A stretch of DNA of 14,413 bases from a virus (Duplodnaviria; Heunggongvirae; Uroviricota; Caudoviricetes). Below the pieces are notes generated by a model, which was not told the origin of the DNA, did not search any database, and saw nothing but the letters and a program-made list of their open reading frames with translations. Positions 6,788-14,413 of this stretch are shown piece by piece. The DNA is taken from IMG/VR virus record IMGVR_UViG_2654587996_000008. One strand, written 5' to 3'. Both the position numbers and the translations under genes were made by a program. Within the stretch, counting starts at the first letter, position 1. Each line of letters starts with the position of its first letter.

Positions 6788-8536
6788 TTATAAAAATTCC
6801 TCGGTTCTCTCCGTTTGTATAACGTTGGTTTGTATTCGTCCTTTAAAACCTCTTGTCAGGTATTCAGCCCCATATTCTCTTGCTGCTGACTTCATGGCCT
6901 TACCAAAATCACCGACACTTAATATTTCTTCTTCCCCCATATACTCCATAAAGGCGAGATATAGTCTGTACAGGCTTGTACGCGGATTAAGATCAGTTAA
7001 TCTCTTACCGCCTCCCATCATCATCCCATGCGGTTCATCAAGAAATGCAAGCGCCGCACATAACCCAATGACAGGATCAGTTTCCTGTTTTATTTTCAGA
7101 GCTTCGGCACCGTCGCGCTGCTCCAACAATAATTCCCGTGCTTTTTCTGGATCGGAAAAGTTAGCCAGTAATCGACGAATAATGACAGGTATTTCCGCCG
7201 CTATCTTTTGCGGTAACTCTTTATCCTTTTCGGTCTCCCTTACAATATTATCGAACCGAAAAATTACACGTCGACGCGCAACGCCTCCGGCCCGTTCGGT
7301 GAATGTCATCGGCACGTTATTTGTTGCCAGCACGACGGACCTGATAATTGTTGTGAAACGCTTTTCATATTTCGGGTTAATTTCAACTGGATCTCCACCC
7401 GTTATTTTTTTGATGCCGGATCCTTCACCTGTATATTTCGGCTGGTCTGCCAGGACAATAAGACGACTTCCGACAACCTGCGCACGCCCGCCAGCATCAT
7501 CAAGTGATGTCATTTCAGCGCTTACCGTGTTCTGTTTCCCTGCCAGAAGGGTGGCTATGTGCGTGATTGTGCTCTTGCCGCTCCCACCTTCCCCTGTGGC
7601 CTCAATAAACATCTGCCAGTCGTACCGGTTCGCCATAATCATGTACAGCGCGGCGCATATACGCATCATCTTTCGCGGGTCTTTTCCTGCGGCGTGATCA
7701 AGCCATTTATGAAAGTTTGGCGCGTTGTCGCGGATGTTCTCCCCTGGTACTGGTGGCGTGTACTCAATGCCGTTATGCGTGGTGATCCAGTTATCCGGCG
7801 AGTGCGGGGAAAATTCGCCAGTTTTCATGTCAAGCACGCCATTAGAGAACGGCAATAAATCACCTGACGGCTCCCCCATTGGCCTGGCCATAACTTTTAA
7901 AGCATCCACTGTATTACTTATTGCTCTCCGACTAAATGATGTTCCGTTTTCTTCGTAAATAGCCACCATTTCACGACTAAGATCCAGTGTGCTTACCGGA
8001 ACCCAAAAATCATCGCGCCAGACGTGAACAACCTCACTCTCCTGATTCATTGCTACATCCTGAAATCGTTCAGCTAAAAGTTTTGCCCTTTGGCTGTCCG
8101 CCATTCTGGAAAGAGATATTTTGTGTTTTTTCTCGGTCCTTCCTGACAGAATTTCTCCGCGCTCAGCCTGTCCGCGGATCCGTTGCAAGTAGTCGCGCCA
8201 GTTCTCCGGCTCCCGGTCGGTGATACCTTTGTATAATTTCGCCTCCTGTACGCCAGCCAGCGCCAGCTTTTCAGCGATAGCATTGATCTGGATTGGTTCG
8301 ATCTCTCCCGCGAGATAGACACGCGCAAAGCGGCGTTTCTCGTCAATAATGCGGATATTCGCCAGGTCTGCCAGTTGCTTTGGCCCCAGGTAAACAGGTG
8401 GTACGTTATCGCCGTGTTTTCGTCCTTCGCTTTCAATCCAGTGTTGAGCATGGGAGTAAGCGTCCGCCCCGGCAAAAATGATTACCTCTGTGAATTTATC
8501 CTTCGGCTGATATTTTAAATTCGGTGCGTTTTTCAC
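6788..8536 (-). CDS. P4-family primase/helicase (D5-like, Walker A P-loop)
   Basis: 582 aa with Walker A 'GEGGSGKST' and a phage/plasmid primase C-terminal-type region. GTG start at 8536 with SD 'GGAGG' 7 nt upstream; GTGA overlap with the upstream ORF. Confidence 0.85.
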   Translation of the reverse strand: MKNAPNLKYQPKDKFTEVIIFAGADAYSHAQHWIESEGRKHGDNVPPVYLGPKQLADLANIRIIDEKRRFARVYLAGEIEPIQINAIAEKLALAGVQEAKLYKGITDREPENWRDYLQRIRGQAERGEILSGRTEKKHKISLSRMADSQRAKLLAERFQDVAMNQESEVVHVWRDDFWVPVSTLDLSREMVAIYEENGTSFSRRAISNTVDALKVMARPMGEPSGDLLPFSNGVLDMKTGEFSPHSPDNWITTHNGIEYTPPVPGENIRDNAPNFHKWLDHAAGKDPRKMMRICAALYMIMANRYDWQMFIEATGEGGSGKSTITHIATLLAGKQNTVSAEMTSLDDAGGRAQVVGSRLIVLADQPKYTGEGSGIKKITGGDPVEINPKYEKRFTTIIRSVVLATNNVPMTFTERAGGVARRRVIFRFDNIVRETEKDKELPQKIAAEIPVIIRRLLANFSDPEKARELLLEQRDGAEALKIKQETDPVIGLCAALAFLDEPHGMMMGGGKRLTDLNPRTSLYRLYLAFMEYMGEEEILSVGDFGKAMKSAAREYGAEYLTRGFKGRIQTNVIQTERTEEFL

Positions 8537-9028: not shown

Positions 9029-9254
9029 GGCTTACATCCTCCGTGAATTTTCTTCTGTAACGCGCCTCTGCCACATATTCCGCATAGTCCGACGCAATAC
9101 TAAGAATCATTTCACCCTCTGACTTGTAGCCATTGGTATTGATAAGAAAATATGCAGCTTTCATCATATCAGCAACGCTTAACAATGCGCCCGCTGTATC
9201 TTCCGGTGCGCCATCAAACTCCTGTTTCAGGGAATTAAAACGATCATCACGCAT
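9021..9254 (-). CDS. Hypothetical protein (77 aa)
   Basis: G-rich SD upstream of the ATG at 9254; 8-nt overlap with the upstream ORF. Confidence 0.45.
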   Translation of the reverse strand: MRDDRFNSLKQEFDGAPEDTAGALLSVADMMKAAYFLINTNGYKSEGEMILSIASDYAEYVAEARYRRKFTEDVSHA

Positions 9255-9612
9255 GTTTACCCCCCTGAATGACCTGATAACCGCAACTGGTCAGCAATTC
9301 GATAAATTCCGGCAATGTGCCGAAACAGTAATCATCACGCAGACGTTCGCGGGATACTTCAACGCCGTTTTCGTAGTGACTCACCATACACCCGGTAAAA
9401 CGCAGATCATCATCGTGATGGCACGTTGACGGCTTAATCAGTCGCGCACGCTCCGCCAGTTCCAGCAATGCTTCAACGCTTCCGGCAATTGCACCATCCG
9501 GCAGGTGATAATTACTTACTACGCGTCCATTCTCTACATTGACCAGTAGCTGCCCGGTAAATTTCTCATCAAACTGAATGCTGTTAAGGTCAGAAATAGA
9601 CGAATTATGCAT
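9247..9612 (-). CDS. Hypothetical protein (121 aa)
   Basis: ATG at 9612 is preceded by a perfect 'AGGAGG' 6 nt upstream; the ORF-track ATG at 9630 is rejected. ATGCATAA overlap with the upstream ORF. Confidence 0.5.
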   Translation of the reverse strand: MHNSSISDLNSIQFDEKFTGQLLVNVENGRVVSNYHLPDGAIAGSVEALLELAERARLIKPSTCHHDDDLRFTGCMVSHYENGVEVSRERLRDDYCFGTLPEFIELLTSCGYQVIQGGKHA

Positions 9613-9829
9613 GGTGCACCTCCTGCACATCAGCCATGATAATTTTTCCGGCCTTATCCAGTGCCTGATCGGCTTTTAGCTGCACAAATGCTAAATAATG
9701 GGAGATGCATTCTGATTCTCTGACTGCGTGTTTATGCGCCACACCAGCGATAGCTGAAATCTCAATAAGTGAATCCATCAGCGTTTTGATAGCGTCTACC
9801 GCTGCATCAGGCCATGTTGCATTACACAT
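9605..9829 (-). CDS. Hypothetical protein (74 aa)
   Basis: SD 'AGGAGG' upstream of the ATG at 9829; ATGTGTAA overlap with the upstream ORF. Confidence 0.45.
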   Translation of the reverse strand: MCNATWPDAAVDAIKTLMDSLIEISAIAGVAHKHAVRESECISHYLAFVQLKADQALDKAGKIIMADVQEVHHA

Positions 9830-10025
9830 GCTCCACCTCCTGGCGAATACGGGCAGCGAATACCATCACGCAGCCATCAGGGGATTGCTGGCGTGCTTCC
9901 TGTTCGCTGGTGGCCTCGATGTGAATTACGCGCGGTTGTGCTGTGCTCAGGGCGATAAAACGCCAGATGTATTTATTCAGGTTGTGCGAGTCCCGCCCTT
10001 GCGGGTGTGTGGTATGATTTCTCAT
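9822..10025 (-). CDS. Hypothetical protein (67 aa), first gene of the replication operon
   Basis: Internal ATG of the long stop-free frame, at 10025, with SD 'GAGGT' 5 nt upstream. Translation 'MRNHTTHPQGRDSHNLNKYIWRF...'. Confidence 0.45.
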   Translation of the reverse strand: MRNHTTHPQGRDSHNLNKYIWRFIALSTAQPRVIHIEATSEQEARQQSPDGCVMVFAARIRQEVEHV

Positions 10026-10122
10026 AGCTACCTCGATACTGTTGCTATCGTTGGTGGTTAGAAGCCCGGTTAGTGTTAGCGCACTGCCGGGTTTCGTCGT
10101 TTCTGCACCTTGCATCAACAAG

Positions 10123-10174
10123 GTGTTGAACACCAATTTAAACCTAGGTGTTAAACACGTCAAGTGTTGAACAC
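10123..10174. promoter_or_regulatory. Three 11-bp palindromic operator-like sites GTGTT(G/A)AACAC in a divergent control region
   Basis: Sites at 10123-10133, 10148-10158 and 10164-10174. The third overlaps a plus-strand -35-like 'TTGAAC' (10167-10172), with -10-like 'CATACT' (10190-10195) upstream of the RHH gene. Confidence 0.55.
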
Positions 10175-10224
10175 TTGTTTTTTTTCCTGCATACTGCATT
10201 TGTTTTTTGTGAGGGGGACACAAC

Positions 10225-10404
10225 ATGGCGACAAAAGCAGTAAACGCAAAATCACAAACAGTTGCGGCAAGGGTTCCGCATGAAGTTATGAACAATGTTG
10301 AGGCGGTAAAAATGCCTGGTGAAAGTACAGGGCAGTTTGTAACAGCAGCATTAAAGCGAGAAGTTGAGTACCGCCAGCGGCGCAAGGCCAAAGAACAGGA
10401 GTAA
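10225..10404 (+). CDS. Small ribbon-helix-helix-like regulator (59 aa), not in the ORF track
   Basis: ATG at 10225 with strong SD 'GAGGGGG'. Translation 'MATKAVNAKSQTVAARVPHEVMNNVEAVKMPGESTGQFVTAALKREVEYRQRRKAKEQE' fits a beta-strand plus two helices. The only clearly plus-strand gene, divergent from the replication operon. Confidence 0.5.
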   Translation: MATKAVNAKSQTVAARVPHEVMNNVEAVKMPGESTGQFVTAALKREVEYRQRRKAKEQE

Positions 10405-10661
10405 CCATCACCAGCGCCGTGGTGTGAGGAACGACGGTGCATCGTTTTACAGGGCAGCGCCATGACCAACAAAGAATCAACCAATACACCATCACCGGCC
10501 CGGAAAAGACAGCGCAGAAAGATAGCGTACGAGTATGAGTCAGACAGATTCGCGCCCTGTGCGTTTATCCTTGAGAATTTCCTTAAAGAGTACAGGCGCA
10601 CAAAAATGGGGTCGCATACCTGGAAAACATCGCGACATGGCAATGTTAAAGAGCCGGAATA

Positions 10662-11084
10662 GCCCACCAGCAAGCCAGCACACTGATCACATTGCCCACC
10701 AGCCGCAAATCTGGCATTGTTGGCGATGTGTTCAAGTGTGTAGCTTTCCCACTGGTGGCCCTCTGCGGTCGCCTTTGTTTTATCCAGAACGAAATCAGAC
10801 ATCAGATTAATCAGCACCTGGCGACCTGACAAAAACGCATCAGTCGCGCCACCAGCAAAATTTTTTGCTTTCCGGACAGCGTGACCAACGACATTTTGCA
10901 GCAAAATATTCTGCATTTCTGGCGTGCTGTAGTAACGGTGATCAGCGCCTTCACTCTGTGCGACCACAACGCTATAATCTGCCTCGTAGACAGTAAGCAA
11001 TATGGCGCAGTAGGCTATTCGTTCACAAAGGCGCTCCGGCAACGGGGCGCTTTCTCTTTTTGTAACGGTCAGAGCGTTACACAT
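10662..11084 (-). CDS. Hypothetical protein, 5' portion only; 3' end undefined (possible disrupted gene)
   Basis: ATG at 11084 overlaps the antirepressor stop (ATGTGTAA). The first ~140 residues look protein-like, but the frame then runs stop-free through regulatory DNA to 9822, so the true end cannot be set. The end coordinate is arbitrary. Confidence 0.25.
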
Positions 11085-11925
11085 GGCTGTTTTCCTCCAT
11101 GCGACGGGCTAACCAACGCTGCGAAAGACGAATTAATTCAGCTTTCCGCTGGTGGTAGCCCTGGCCTAACTCAATCAGCGTGATATTGCTCTGCTCAAGG
11201 TAAGAAAGGTGCTCAAGCTGCAACGTGCTCATGTGGTCGCGTGGTTCGCCTGTGATGCCGTTCGCCTGCGCCCACTGTTTTGCAGTCATGCCACCCAGCA
11301 CGATACGCGCCAGCATATTGGCTTCCGTGGTGTAGTGGTGCTGGAACGTGTTTTTATCCAGTTCAGCCCGGTACGCCTCCAGCGCGGCACACATTGGCTT
11401 AAAGTAGCTGGCAACTGTGATACGGGCTTTCATTTCCCGGCGTAACGCTGCGGAACGCACTGGCGCTACCTTGTGTAGCTCCTCCTCGCATTTGATGAAG
11501 TACTGACGAACGGCGCGGCCCTGTTCGGTGCGTTCGACCATCGCCAGTTCTTTCGCCATGTTCGTGGAGATCAAATAGTCTTCACTGCGACGATCACCGC
11601 CGCGCTTTGTTGTCCAATCAGAATCAAACTGTTCAATATTTACACTTTGGTTCCCCCATTTCGGGGAATCAAAGTACAAATTTTCTACAACTTCAAAATC
11701 CACACCCTTTTTAAATCCGTACTCATCAATGCGTCCTTTAATCCAGGTTGTGAAATCACGACCTACCCCGAGCGCCTTATGCGACGCTCTGGCGCTAACA
11801 ATATTGGTTTCACGCCCGCCAATAACGCCGGAAATAACCGGGATAATTTCGCCAAAATTTTGCAGATTCTGGTTTTCAGGCCGAACGAAGCCCTGCCCCT
11901 GTACGGGCGTTTTTCGCAGTTTCAT
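11077..11925 (-). CDS. Phage antirepressor-like protein (AntA-type N-terminal domain plus KilA-C-type C-terminal domain)
   Basis: 282 aa with SD 'AGGAG' upstream. 'SARASHKALGVGRDFTTWIKGRI' and 'MAKELAMVERTEQGRAVRQYFIKCEEEL' match antirepressor domain signatures as I recall them. Confidence 0.6.
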   Translation of the reverse strand: MKLRKTPVQGQGFVRPENQNLQNFGEIIPVISGVIGGRETNIVSARASHKALGVGRDFTTWIKGRIDEYGFKKGVDFEVVENLYFDSPKWGNQSVNIEQFDSDWTTKRGGDRRSEDYLISTNMAKELAMVERTEQGRAVRQYFIKCEEELHKVAPVRSAALRREMKARITVASYFKPMCAALEAYRAELDKNTFQHHYTTEANMLARIVLGGMTAKQWAQANGITGEPRDHMSTLQLEHLSYLEQSNITLIELGQGYHQRKAELIRLSQRWLARRMEENSHV

Positions 11926-12002: not shown

Positions 12003-12200
12003 TCAGGTAGCTGTTCCGCGTGATTCCGCAATACGCTGATTAATCCACTCGTCAATTTCACTCTCAACGAAAGCAATCGCTCGCGAGCCAATTTTTACAG
12101 GTTTAGGAAAACGCCCTTGGGCAATGAGTTTATAGATCCATGCCCTTCCATACCCTGTACGGCGCATGGTTTCTGGCATACGAATTAAAGATTGTGACAT
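12003..12200 (-). CDS. alpA: AlpA-family transcriptional regulator / excisionase-like protein
   Basis: About 65 aa from the ATG at 12200 (SD 'GGGAGA' upstream). 'IRMPETMRRTGYGRAWIYKLIAQGRFPKPVKIGSRAIAFVESEIDEWINQR' is the AlpA-type HTH signature. The ORF-track N-terminal extension is rejected. Confidence 0.75.
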   Translation of the reverse strand: MSQSLIRMPETMRRTGYGRAWIYKLIAQGRFPKPVKIGSRAIAFVESEIDEWINQRIAESRGTAT

Positions 12201-12266
12201 GATAATCGTCTCCCGTTGTTTATTGATGCCTACGGGAGACATTGAAGCAGGTAAGACATTGGATAT

Positions 12267-12303
12267 CACCGCAATTGCGGTGAATGATACCGCAATTGCG
12301 GTA
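12267..12303. promoter_or_regulatory. Tandem 16-bp perfect palindromes CACCGCAATTGCGGTG and TACCGCAATTGCGGTA (operator-like)
   Basis: At 12267-12282 and 12288-12303, centres 21 bp apart, between the 251-aa gene stop (12315) and the alpA start (12200). Confidence 0.55.
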
Positions 12304-12314
12304 TAGGACTACAA

Positions 12315-13070
12315 CTACGATTTAATTGATTTATTGGCTTCAGCAAACTTTGCTTCCAGCGTTCTTGAACTCATCCCCGGCTTACCTTCAAAATGCCCCA
12401 ATAAATTACTAATAATAGAGCTTTGATTTTCGAATACAGATTGCTTAATACCAGCAGGTGAACGCCCTAACATTAGAAAAAGCAACCCTCCAATAATGTT
12501 TAAATATGTTGTTTCAGAACGTTGGTCAATGTTTTGCACGGAGTTATCAACCATTCGTCGTAGTGAATCACGTTCCCCTTGTAATTCGGAAATTTCATTT
12601 TTCTGCTGTTGAAAAGTCTTCATAGCATTATCTAAGCGAATATTAAGACGTTTGTTTTCAGCCTGAAGAGTTTGATATGCCTCGACTGTAATTCCAGCAT
12701 GTAACTGCTGCTCAACAGCATCAAAAAGGAAAGCTGGTTTTTGGTTGGGATAGTTTTTTGACATCCATGATTTCAGATCGGAATGACGGACGGTTAAACG
12801 GTGCTTAGCAACCTGTTCTCCAGGTTGAACAGTTTTACCATCACGACCATAAGGAATTTCACAATTATTGATTGCATCTAAAATTTTCTCAGCATTAACA
12901 CGCAAGCAAGGCCATTGAGGGAACATTCCAACGCTAGGTAAAACTCCATCTCCCACTCGCTCCAATATTAAAACTTCATGAGCAATTAAATTACACCAAC
13001 GTAGCGCCGCTTCAATTGGAGTGTAATATGCCTTTTCAAGAGAACTACAGCTTTTTGAATTGTAAGTCAC
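12315..13070 (-). CDS. Uncharacterised protein (251 aa) with central coiled-coil-like segment
   Basis: Apparent GTG start at 13070 with SD 'GAGGT' upstream. Heptad-like region 'QTLQAENKRLNIRLDNAMKTFQQQKNEISELQGERDSLRRM'. No family recognised. Confidence 0.5.
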   Translation of the reverse strand: MTYNSKSCSSLEKAYYTPIEAALRWCNLIAHEVLILERVGDGVLPSVGMFPQWPCLRVNAEKILDAINNCEIPYGRDGKTVQPGEQVAKHRLTVRHSDLKSWMSKNYPNQKPAFLFDAVEQQLHAGITVEAYQTLQAENKRLNIRLDNAMKTFQQQKNEISELQGERDSLRRMVDNSVQNIDQRSETTYLNIIGGLLFLMLGRSPAGIKQSVFENQSSIISNLLGHFEGKPGMSSRTLEAKFAEANKSIKS

Positions 13071-13198
13071 TCTGTGCTACCTCGCACCCTCTGTAAAAGT
13101 GGCTGTGCCAGCCCGCAGAGGTGTACGGGTTTTCAGGAGCGACCCTAGACACAGCCTTTTCTTAATCGCTCAAAGTCTACTACTGTATACTCAACCAG

Positions 13199-14413
13199 TC
13201 ACCCGCATTTTCCGAACTCACCATGCACCACATTTCCGCCATGCTCGAGCGAATCCATATAGTCGGCATACCACTGGAGCATCTCCCGGCGACCATCCAG
13301 ATATTGCGCATGGTTGTATGTGCCACGAATTGAGTTTTTATCGACGTGTGCAAGCTGTGTCTCTATCCACGCGGTGTTATAGCCCTGCTCATGCAAAATG
13401 GTGCTCATGGTGTGCCGGAATCCATGACCAGTAACCTTTCCGTTATAGCCGATGCGTTTAAATACTTGGTTTATGCTAGCCTCGCTCATTGTTTTCCTTG
13501 GATCATTACGGCCGGGAAACATAAGCGGATAATTGCCAGTTAATTCTTTAATCTGCCCAATAAGCGAAAGAGCCTGCTCAGACAAAGGCACCACATGAGG
13601 GCGACGCATTTTCATCCGTGAAGCAGGTATCTCCCAGATAGCCTTGTTGAGATCGATTTCATCCCATAATGCACCGCGCAGTTCGCCAGTCCGCAAACCG
13701 GTGATAATCAGTAGACGAGCCGCCATAACAACCAATGCACTTCCTGAGTAACTGGACAATGCCTTGAAAAAATCAGGTAATTCTTTGGCTGTGAGGAAAG
13801 GATAATGACTAGATTCATGACCTTGCATCGCGCTGGTGAGATCCGGTGCAGGGTTATACTCAGCACGTCCAGTGACAATTGCATAGCGGAAAACTTCCCC
13901 GCATCGCTGCCTCACTTTTTTGGCTTTTTCGGTAGCACCGCGCCCCTCGATGCGCCGCAGCACATTCAGCAGTTCAAGTGGTTTGATTTCGGCGATTGGT
14001 TTTTTGCCAATGTAAGGGAACACATCTTTGTTGAAGGCTTCGAGGATGTCTGAAGCATAACCAGCAGACCATTTTTTTAATTTGCTGCTGTGCCACTCAA
14101 TGGCAATATCTTTGAAGGTGTTGTTTAACTGCGTTTCCCGGGCAATCTTTTCCTCTCGTTTCGCTTCCATCGGATCGATACCCCCAGCGATACTCCTTTT
14201 AGCTTCTTCACGTTTTGCACGAGCATCAGCCAAGGTAACTTCAGGATACACACCTAGTGCTAACAGCTTCTCTTTACCAGCTACACGATACTTGAAGCGC
14301 CAATATTTTCCTCCACTAGGTTTTACCAAGAGATACAGACCACCACCATCAGCCAGCTTGTAAGCCTTCTCTTTTGGCTTGGCAGTGTCTATTTGACGGG
14401 CATTGAGTTTCAC
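13199..14413 (-). CDS. int: P4-type tyrosine integrase (site-specific recombinase)
   Basis: 404 aa. N-terminus 'KLNARQIDTAKPKEKAYKLADGGGLYLLVKPSGGKYWRFKYR' is typical of P4/CP4-57-type integrases; C-terminus has 'HGFRHT' and 'RGTYNHA' (catalytic Tyr region). Apparent GTG start sits exactly at the window edge, so the N-terminus may be slightly truncated. Confidence 0.9.
   Translation of the reverse strand: MKLNARQIDTAKPKEKAYKLADGGGLYLLVKPSGGKYWRFKYRVAGKEKLLALGVYPEVTLADARAKREEAKRSIAGGIDPMEAKREEKIARETQLNNTFKDIAIEWHSSKLKKWSAGYASDILEAFNKDVFPYIGKKPIAEIKPLELLNVLRRIEGRGATEKAKKVRQRCGEVFRYAIVTGRAEYNPAPDLTSAMQGHESSHYPFLTAKELPDFFKALSSYSGSALVVMAARLLIITGLRTGELRGALWDEIDLNKAIWEIPASRMKMRRPHVVPLSEQALSLIGQIKELTGNYPLMFPGRNDPRKTMSEASINQVFKRIGYNGKVTGHGFRHTMSTILHEQGYNTAWIETQLAHVDKNSIRGTYNHAQYLDGRREMLQWYADYMDSLEHGGNVVHGEFGKCG

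Follow-up and report, generated by a model that had tools for sequence, protein, structure and literature searches.

Introduction

AlpA is the master switch of the Gram-negative phage-inducible chromosomal islands (PICIs) and related satellites, and how a helper phage turns alpA on is a stated open question (PMC10803314). Gram-negative PICIs are described as having no known repressor, and none has been found (PMC6092414). The DNA analyzed here, hereafter the window, is the whole 14,413-bp stretch from the IMG/VR virus record IMGVR_UViG_2654587996_000008 (Caudoviricetes), in which the genes follow the same order as in Gram-negative PICIs (PMC10111431, PMC6092414). The same stretch makes up one entire contig of IMG/VR, IMGVR_UViG_3300011840_000039 (L200). 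We describe two tandem palindromes, or dyads, located between alpA and the gene for a 251-amino-acid (aa) protein, and we argue that they probably form a paired operator for the 251-aa protein at the alpA promoter, read by the C-terminal domain of that protein.

Two described systems come closest to this locus. In SaPIs, the regulator Stl (Rpr) is encoded beside int, controls the first activation gene and differs strongly between similar islands. Stl is believed to link the satellite with its helper phage (PMC6092414), and we presume the same role for the regulator in the window. The window likewise has a variable regulator next to int with operators that match it. However, Stl and its target genes are transcribed divergently; in the window, int, the regulator gene and alpA all point the same way, with the dyads 3' of the regulator gene. 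Moreover, Stl is an established repressor, whereas we favour activation here, and no sequence relationship between the two proteins was detected.

The second system is the PICMI satellites of Vibrio, in which the slot between int and alpA is occupied, as in the window, by a co-oriented gene (iolg/icg); these genes belong to many unrelated families of unassigned function (PMC10803314). The iolg and int genes are constitutively expressed, alpA is induced by the phage, and iolg is needed for this: deletion of the gene between int and alpA abolishes the helper-induced activation (PMC10803314). Unlike the window, where a 128-nt gap (13071-13198) holding the int-alpA RNA motif separates int from the regulator gene, iolg overlaps int by 1-13 nt, and no operators were described for PICMI, for which the authors propose a role of iolg in the excision complex (PMC10803314). 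Our full-text searches of the literature found no description of the dyads, of the 251-aa protein family or of an alpA regulator encoded between int and alpA.

Results

Two perfect palindromes separate the regulator gene from alpA

The genes in this part of the window are all located on the minus strand. The features that matter most are the following, in the order in which they are transcribed.

12315..13070, minus strand: gene of the 251-aa regulator (AlphaFold2 model, family alignments)
12288..12303, no strand: distal dyad TACCGCAATTGCGGTA, predicted centre at about -61.5 from the alpA transcription start, with the 21-bp offset kept across loci
12267..12282, no strand: proximal dyad CACCGCAATTGCGGTG, predicted centre at about -40.5, with its terminal GTG overlapping the -35 element
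12003..12200, minus strand: alpA, 65 aa (Pfam Phage_AlpA, E=1.1e-19), the gene downstream of the dyads

Read on the plus strand, positions 12267-12282 (CACCGCAATTGCGGTG, on the alpA side) and 12288-12303 (TACCGCAATTGCGGTA, adjoining the regulator gene) are both perfect 16-bp palindromes, and they have a 14-bp core, ACCGCAATTGCGGT, in common. Their centres, at 12274.5 and 12295.5, are 21 bp apart. Tandem perfect 16-bp palindromes with this spacing between the two genes had been pointed out in a first-pass annotation made from the letters alone, and the window sequence bears this out. The dyads lie within the 114-nt gap that separates the 251-aa gene from alpA and start, in the direction of transcription, 11 nt past the stop codon of the 251-aa gene. 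The centre of the proximal dyad is 74 nt away from the alpA start codon, which is the ATG at 12200 and not the upstream GTG at 12269.

When up to three mismatches were allowed, the 14-mer core had no match in the window beyond the two dyads. The tandem dyad pattern was found in 0 of 200 dinucleotide-preserving shuffles of the window (expected 0.00), which, together with the conservation across loci described below, rules out a chance origin of the pair. The first-pass annotation had also proposed that the core is shared with a palindrome upstream of a cargo ribbon-helix-helix (RHH) gene. This link did not hold up. A third copy of GCAATTGC is present at 9485-9492, but it falls inside a conserved coding open reading frame (ORF; 9247-9630, phrog_340), its flanks (CCGGCAATTGCACC) mismatch the 14-mer core and about 0.7 copies are expected in the window by chance; we therefore consider it a chance occurrence.

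The paired dyads recur at loci encoding homologues of the 251-aa protein

An alignment-driven scan with the 251-aa protein, in which the protein alone was used and one genome per species was taken, yielded 61 loci. These come from Enterobacterales, Pseudomonas, Alcanivorax, Cellvibrio, many Betaproteobacteria and one alphaproteobacterium. Most of them have the same layout: two dyads, 20-21 bp apart, begin no more than about 20 nt past the gene, and after them comes a small regulator gene, usually alpA (an alpA-like gene in about 50 of the 61 loci). In several seeming exceptions the first dyad overlaps the stop codon. Many second sites are degenerate and escaped a strict detector set to 6 or more of 7 pairs in each dyad. 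By an offset test used in its place, the best direct-repeat offset 3' of the gene was 21 bp at 33 of the 56 usable loci and 20 bp at another 9, compared with about 9% in shuffles. Integrase-sized ORFs are present upstream in many of the 61 loci, and tRNA or tmRNA genes in 7 of the 20 loci scanned for them.

Among 78 dyads, arm pairs 3-6, counted from the centre, proved complementary in 78-95%, while the central pair varies freely, and the position profile shows that the spacer between the two sites carries almost no information. The two dyads of a locus are alike, whereas those of different lineages differ (CCGCAATTGCGG, CTGCAATTGCAG, CCCCAATTGGGG/CCCTAGTTAGGG, CCGCCAWTACGG, CCGAATTCGG, CGGTAATTACC, CTAATTAG, TGCATATGCA and TGTGAAnTCACA), a pattern of concerted evolution. 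Because of this likeness within and difference between loci, the protein that reads the dyads is expected to be encoded at the locus itself. Judged from its distribution, the arrangement is ancient and widespread in Proteobacteria.

The C-terminal domain of the 251-aa protein changes together with the dyads

Searches with the 251-aa protein gave no match in Pfam or NCBIfam and no informative one in PHROG, and no homologue was found in the phage collection. A 90%-clustered database contained 706 homologues, and the family comprises 781 cluster representatives at 50% identity. Many members are named 'protein kinase' at NCBI. We reject this identity: neither Pfam nor NCBIfam detects a kinase or other enzymatic domain, and the AlphaFold2 model (pLDDT 82.8) consists of a winged-helix-like domain, a coiled coil and a three-helix bundle. 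A profile search of solved structures returned coiled-coil noise only. The family alignment shows the same architecture, namely a conserved N-domain, a variable coiled coil and a C-domain, and the parts of the 251-aa protein map to the window as follows.

12726-13043, minus strand: N-domain, about aa 10-115 (AlphaFold2 model, family alignments)
12534-12686, minus strand: long helix, aa 129-179 (AlphaFold2 model)
12321-12524, minus strand: C-terminal three-helix domain, aa 183-250 (AlphaFold2 model)
12321..12368, minus strand: last helix, aa 235-250, SRTLEAKFAEANKSIK, the proposed recognition helix, whose R236 and E239 co-vary with dyad bases

The similarity between dyads correlated best with the similarity between C-domains (Spearman 0.52), compared with 0.29 for the N-domain and 0.10-0.15 for AlpA. 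Likewise, the nearest non-trivial neighbour belonged to the same dyad class in 34 of 46 cases when the C-domain was compared, and in 23-24 of 46 when other regions were. An alignment sorted by dyad class pinpointed the residues involved. Loci with CCGC dyads have RTLE or RTLQ at the positions of window residues 236-239, and those with CTGC dyads have RTLW in 12 of 13 cases, the outlier (L023) combining TTGC dyads with RTLA. At loci with CCCC or CCCT dyads, Arg236 has been changed to T, S or A in three different subfamily backgrounds, and unrelated dyads go together with C-domains that cannot be aligned. Residue 236 thus follows position 4 of the half-site and residue 239 position 3, and the AlphaFold2 model places both at the start of the last helix of the three-helix C-domain.

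An out-of-sample set was assembled by retrieving loci by the DNA pattern only, which gave 164 unique matches. In 78 of these a C-domain ORF ends at the dyads, and 30 are intergenic look-alike pairs without a C-domain gene. The rest are 5 alpA-only loci at contig ends, 33 coding repeats in long ORFs, 7 arrays of at least three copies and 11 matches with short flanks. Hence, a C-domain ORF lies beside the dyads in 78 of the 108 interpretable intergenic matches. At 27 of the 78 loci the protein has no recognisable family N-domain but another N-terminus instead, which makes the C-domain the common denominator. In a separately de-duplicated pass over the loci matching the CCGC pattern, R236 was present in 71 of 73 C-domains and W239 in none; concordantly, locus L261, with CCCC dyads, has Ala at 236. 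The out-of-sample test of the CTGC (W239) and CCCY (non-R236) rules was underpowered, as the matches on viral contigs are mostly Ala-rich coding repeats. For the CCGAATTCGG pattern the matching D-type C-domain was found beside only 5 of 46 matches, which indicates that this motif is widely used elsewhere.

The gene downstream of the dyads can be exchanged. At 25 or more loci, including L070, L068, L100, L105, L204 and L215, a gene for an ECF-like sigma factor (Sigma70_r2, 25.3 bits; about 232-239 aa) replaces alpA after the same dyads and at the same distance (+63 nt). These loci form a large clade of metagenomic and viral contigs with CCGCAnnTGCGG dyads. At L080, an HTH_39 winged-helix gene follows CCGCAnnTGCGG dyads instead of alpA. 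The dyads are thus uncoupled from AlpA, because the same ones precede sigma or HTH_39 genes where there is no alpA. Sites of the AlpA/Xis type would accompany alpA and track its DNA-binding region; the dyads do neither consistently. The first-pass annotation had offered RHH proteins of the island, the 251-aa protein and AlpA as possible binders. Taken together, these comparisons single out the 251-aa protein, whose binding to the dyads is well supported by them; AlpA is disfavoured by the sigma and HTH_39 loci and its low Spearman values, and nothing supports the RHH proteins.

The dyads belong to an exchangeable cassette

Of 5,426 complete E. coli genomes, only 7 contain the entire segment 11900-13200. 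Some 200 others match it at the int and alpA ends alone and have a different middle gene. In the two of these that were examined (L002 and L003), the middle gene encodes an unrelated 265-aa protein, and the palindromes are also different: the gap before alpA contains four copies of another palindrome, ACCCTNAGGGT, of which those nearest to the 265-aa gene are 22 bp apart. The integrases of the window and L002 are 99% identical, and the dyads there are entirely different, which excludes Int as the dyad binder. The AlpA proteins of the two are 78% identical, with the differences located in the helix-turn-helix half, so that the L002 comparison alone leaves AlpA possible as the reader. On the evidence of these genomes, the dyads are part of a swappable regulator-plus-operator cassette, and the comparison suggests that the int-alpA interval is a hot spot for the exchange of such cassettes.

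The alternative locus (L002 2372-2481 and the equivalent in L003) has a gene annotated as 'bZIP' or hypothetical, whose product gave no informative match in Pfam, PHROG or NCBIfam. The 265-aa protein has the same layout of N-domain, coiled coil and C-terminal helix as the 251-aa protein, and its alpA-proximal site is centred 75 nt before the ATG, compared with 74 nt for the proximal dyad of the window. A third type of int-alpA interval, 427 nt long, occurs in EcCIMP1 of E. coli MP1 (L250, 2857-3285), a PICI that has been studied experimentally. Some 90 nt upstream of alpA it contains a single large inverted repeat, GACCGCAATATG-N5-CATATTGTGGTC; no tandem dyads are present in this interval of the MP1 chromosome.

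The dyads are in fixed register with a predicted alpA promoter

Alignment of 71 non-redundant loci on the centre of the proximal dyad revealed core promoter elements in fixed register with the dyads. Exactly at +29..+34, counted from the centre of that dyad, the match to TATAAT averages 3.23/6, compared with about 1.5 in the background. Its profile is t-A-n-A-A-T, in which the final T (-7) is present in 83% and the A at -11 in only 51% of the loci. The flank of the proximal dyad at +6..+9 reads G/T/G/A, conserved at 86, 90, 80 and 52%, and is followed by an uninformative 17-bp spacer. The G at +8 is present in 80% of the loci beside the proximal dyad versus 25% at the equivalent distal position, and a -35 element (xTGAnn) overlapping the proximal dyad would give exactly such an asymmetry. 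In the window, the corresponding elements are as follows.

12264..12269, minus strand: predicted -35 element GTGATA, 4/6 to TTGACA (71-locus profile)
12241..12249, minus strand: predicted extended -10 element TGcTTCAAT, with the hexamer TTCAAT at 12246-12241 and TG at 12249-12248 (71-locus profile)

Transcription of alpA would thus start near 12234. Since the -10-like hexamer and the xTGA flank hold a fixed register, the dyad centres would lie near -40.5 and -61.5; the value of -40.5, close to the class II position of -41.5, holds if the conserved hexamer is the -10 element. A simple scan for consensus promoters found no minus-strand promoter in the gap, because the predicted one is weak, with T rather than A at -11. 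By eye, the cassette of L002 has the same layout: the alpA-proximal site, ATGAAA, about 17 bp and TGcCATGAT.

That the palindromes serve a dimeric regulator as a pair of sites spaced by two helical turns, from which alpA is gated, had been put forward in the first-pass annotation. The comparative evidence strongly supports this core reading because the 20-21-bp pairing recurs in 42 of 56 loci, the distance to the -10 element is fixed and the dyads co-vary with one protein domain.

RNA structures near the dyads

In RNA reading through the gap, the two palindromes are predicted to pair with each other (minimum free energy -45.7 kcal/mol, z = -6.5). However, a terminator scan of the window called none between the regulator gene and alpA, and the dyads are not followed by a U-tract, either in the window or in the profile of the 71 loci (T 0.18-0.42 at +9..+16). 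The arm mismatches comprise 14 sense G-U, 22 A-C and 32 others, i.e., there is no excess of G-U. In view of these results, an intrinsic terminator or a selected sense-strand hairpin is disfavoured. An Rfam search found no family at 12267-12303; its single match in the window lies elsewhere, and a second structure was predicted by RNA folding in the alpA leader.

13087..13155, minus strand: Rfam int-alpA RNA motif RF02996 (49.8 bits, gathering score 35.8), immediately 5' of the regulator gene
12208..12240, minus strand: alpA leader hairpin GUCUCCCGU...ACGGGAGAC, 9 bp (RNA fold)

The motif RF02996 thus shares the int-alpA neighbourhood with the dyads, but it is upstream of the regulator gene and not at the dyads, and it is a structured-RNA candidate whereas the dyads are a DNA pair. 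It occupies the equivalent position in L004 (2916-2984), L005 (2904-2974), L014 (2891-2970), L016 (2911-2977), L018 (2911-2976), L043 (2889-2969), L056 (1871-1938) and L002 (3311-3378). The motif ends about 17-30 nt before the start codon of the middle gene, both in cassettes with the 251-aa gene and in those with the unrelated 265-aa gene. Because it is present in both, it looks like a leader or promoter element of the middle gene and not of alpA, which suggests that the Rfam int-alpA RNA motif is the leader of int-alpA regulator genes.

The alpA leader hairpin pairs with the Shine-Dalgarno sequence GGGAG (12214-12210). By eye, hairpins adjoin the Shine-Dalgarno sequence at most related loci, though not always in the register of the window. 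With a start near 12234, mRNA from the alpA promoter would be without most of the 5' arm of the hairpin and read-through mRNA would contain it, which could keep the read-through transcript untranslated.

Gene neighbourhood

The module is flanked by the following genes.

13199..14413, minus strand: tyrosine integrase gene int (Pfam Phage_integrase, Arm-DNA-bind_3 and Phage_int_M), the upstream neighbour of the module
11077-11925, minus strand: AntA-family gene (window annotation)

The window also encodes DUF4222, a D5_N/DUF5906 primase (6788-8536, far from the dyads), ProQ/FinO, PerC and a small-terminase-like helix-turn-helix protein. SEN1998, considered as a possible relative of the 251-aa protein, is an AlpA-like excision factor unrelated to the family.

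Only an odd-looking 420-aa ORF is present in the 1.26-kb region 9822-11084; the ORF has no Pfam match and the stretch no Rfam match. In the equivalent zone, related islands carry C4 antisense and isrK RNAs (L250 600-827, L018 5778-5981 and L056 3504-3590).

In the closest genomic relative, E. coli ZF8-1 (L001, 14300-27301), the int end of the island adjoins a partial integrase and a P22-like prophage that carries a tailspike, gp10, gp4 and a P22-type capsid. Kapi1, the known helper of EcCIMP1, has been described as a close relative of P22 (PMC11773190), and for this reason the P22-like prophage of ZF8-1 is a candidate helper.

Discussion

We propose the following mechanism. The 251-aa protein would dimerise via its long central helix, and the two C-terminal three-helix domains of a dimer would read the half-sites ACCGCA/TGCGGT of one dyad through the last helix (R236, T237, L238 and E239). 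With their 21-bp spacing, the two dyads would present the same face of the DNA to two dimers, which would probably bind cooperatively. The predicted promoter is of the sigma-70 type, with GTGATA at -35, a 17-bp spacer and TTCAAT after TG at -10, and the bound protein would decide whether RNA polymerase starts at alpA, whose product sets off excision and replication of the satellite. If the protein is an activator, the proximal dimer would abut the -35 element and aid the weak promoter, much as a class II activator or lambda CI bound to OR2 does, while the invariant N-terminal winged-helix-like domain would respond to the helper phage.

Several of these features are familiar. At OR1-OR2/PRM of lambda, dimers of CI bind two adjacent dyad-symmetric sites on the same DNA face, one of which abuts the -35 element of a weak promoter (at about -42 in lambda and about -40.5 here). 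In lambdoid immunity regions, too, operator and recognition helix change together, and cassettes have been swapped between near-identical elements. The differences are also clear. The 251-aa protein is unrelated to CI (there is no Pfam or fold match), its dimers would be held together by a coiled coil and not by a CI-type C-terminal domain, and its reader is C-terminal instead of N-terminal. The spacing is 21 bp here versus 24 bp in lambda; there is no third operator and no divergent promoter, and the operators are located downstream of the regulator gene, without an upstream copy. With their predicted centres at -40.5 and -61.5, the dyads would share one helical face and also resemble the class II (about -41.5) and class I (about -61.5) sites of CRP/FNR, and, as at class II promoters, a weak -35 element overlaps the proximal site. 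Unlike the CRP/FNR case, however, the protein is unrelated, both sites are predicted to bind one island-encoded protein, and the positions depend on the predicted start.

Concerning the sign of regulation, we lean slightly towards activation of alpA by the bound 251-aa protein, because the sites are at activator positions, the -10 element and the start are left uncovered, the promoter is weak and the window contains no further operator copy, neither over the core promoter nor upstream of the regulator gene. The lack of a known repressor in Gram-negative PICIs and the phenotype of the PICMI gene deletion point in the same direction. The same binding with the opposite sign is the main alternative, plausible though less likely in our view. 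The 251-aa protein would then be a Stl-like master repressor that blocks the -35 element of alpA from -40.5/-61.5; since its sites begin 11 nt after the stop codon of its own gene, it would also be a roadblock to read-through from int and that gene, and a helper protein acting on the N-domain would release it. The proximal dyad does overlap the predicted -35 element by 2-3 bp, and read-through must be handled somehow, as there is no terminator-like site between the regulator gene and alpA. Moreover, the alleles of the gene next to int differ and have operators to match, like those of Stl in SaPIs (PMC6092414), and alpA is silent without a helper phage (PMC6092414, PMC11773190). Yet repressors usually act at the -10 element, the spacer or the start site, all of which the dyads leave free, the promoter looks intrinsically weak, and the positional equivalent in PICMI is required for activation (PMC10803314). 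The alpA reporter of EcCICFT073 is low in non-lysogens (PMC6092414), which speaks against a repressor if, as we presume, no island factor was present there; that island appears to have no middle gene.

The remaining explanations do not involve the 251-aa protein. Positive autoregulation, with the dyads as AlpA's own sites, seems improbable. PalpA is activated by AlpA in EcCICFT073 and probably in EcCIMP1 (PMC6092414, PMC11773190), the dyads are upstream of alpA in about 50 of 61 loci, and the helix-turn-helix half of AlpA differs between the window and L002, as do the dyads; however, the alpA gene of EcCIMP1 has no tandem dyads upstream, identical CCGCAnnTGCGG pairs precede ECF-like sigma or HTH_39 genes where alpA is missing, and AlpA follows the dyads far less closely than the C-domain does (Spearman 0.10-0.15 vs 0.52). 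AlpA is also a 65-aa winged helix of the Xis/TorI type without a dimerisation element, and proteins of this kind (lambda Xis, TorI and P4 Vis) recognise direct repeats in arrays rather than perfect 16-bp palindromes. It is similarly improbable that the dyads act as RNA, in which one or two hairpins or a 14-bp inter-dyad stem would terminate, stabilise or process the regulator mRNA and insulate alpA. The fold between the palindromes is predicted to be very stable, a T-run follows the proximal dyad in L009 and L042, and the element begins just past the stop codon, but the U-tract, the terminator call, the G-U excess and the Rfam family are all missing. A hairpin would need neither the strict 21-bp spacing nor the fixed distance to the -10 element, which are properties of a DNA site, nor identical dyads within a locus, and the non-palindromic centres that occur as direct repeats (AACT/AACT in L010 and ACCT/ACCT in L027) would be mismatched in an inter-dyad stem. 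We give the least credence of all to replication-origin iterons, integrase arm sites or another architectural element unrelated to alpA transcription. The same CCGCAnnTGCGG core does occur in 21-bp arrays of at least three copies (L076, L098 and L110) and as pairs that lie after a gene for a primase/helicase of about 570 aa and are followed by GCGGACATTT iterons (L069, L142, L150 and L181). Such arrays and pairs look like origins and may reflect a second use of the core or a second reader. The window and its relatives, on the other hand, have exactly two copies, far from the primase gene and in fixed register with the promoter, and the dyads can be completely different while Int stays 99% identical.

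Some observations weigh against a paired operator through which the 251-aa protein activates alpA. The case for this family is one of comparison, in which shared ancestry inflates the co-variation between linked features. The 30 look-alike pairs have no detectable C-domain gene, some of them lying in origin-like iteron contexts, and the distant relative L254 combines CTGC dyads with RTLD rather than RTLW. The transcription start is deduced from a consensus-like hexamer, which in the window (TTCAAT) does not have the key A at -11 and was missed by the scan. Furthermore, the argument for activation drawn from PICMI is one of analogy only, given that the authors propose that the iolg products are components of the excision complex and that the iolg genes are taken to belong to other families.

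Five residues of the N-domain (C8, C26, C55, H96 and H124) are invariant over 52 diverse homologues, which suggests a metal or redox site. It is tempting, though tentative, to view the 251-aa family, along with the proteins that take its place between int and alpA elsewhere (the 265-aa protein and possibly the iolg products of PICMI), as helper-phage sensors of Gram-negative satellites. In such a sensor, again only a possibility, the C-domain would dock on its private operator pair, and the N-domain, with its invariant Cys and His residues, would detect a product of the helper and switch the protein to an activator. If so, swapping of the cassette would re-target the satellite to a new helper, as Stl alleles do, but with the opposite sign.

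A transcription-factor operator is of an ordinary kind; what would be new here are the regulator family, its modular reader and the placement at the master switch of a satellite. The analysis supplies a cis element, a promoter geometry and a specific candidate protein from a widespread and misnamed family, as well as predictions at the level of residues, R236 and E239 against half-site positions 4 and 3. Satellites of this type move virulence, resistance and anti-phage defence genes between bacteria, and the dyads together with the 251-aa protein offer a testable candidate for how they turn on.

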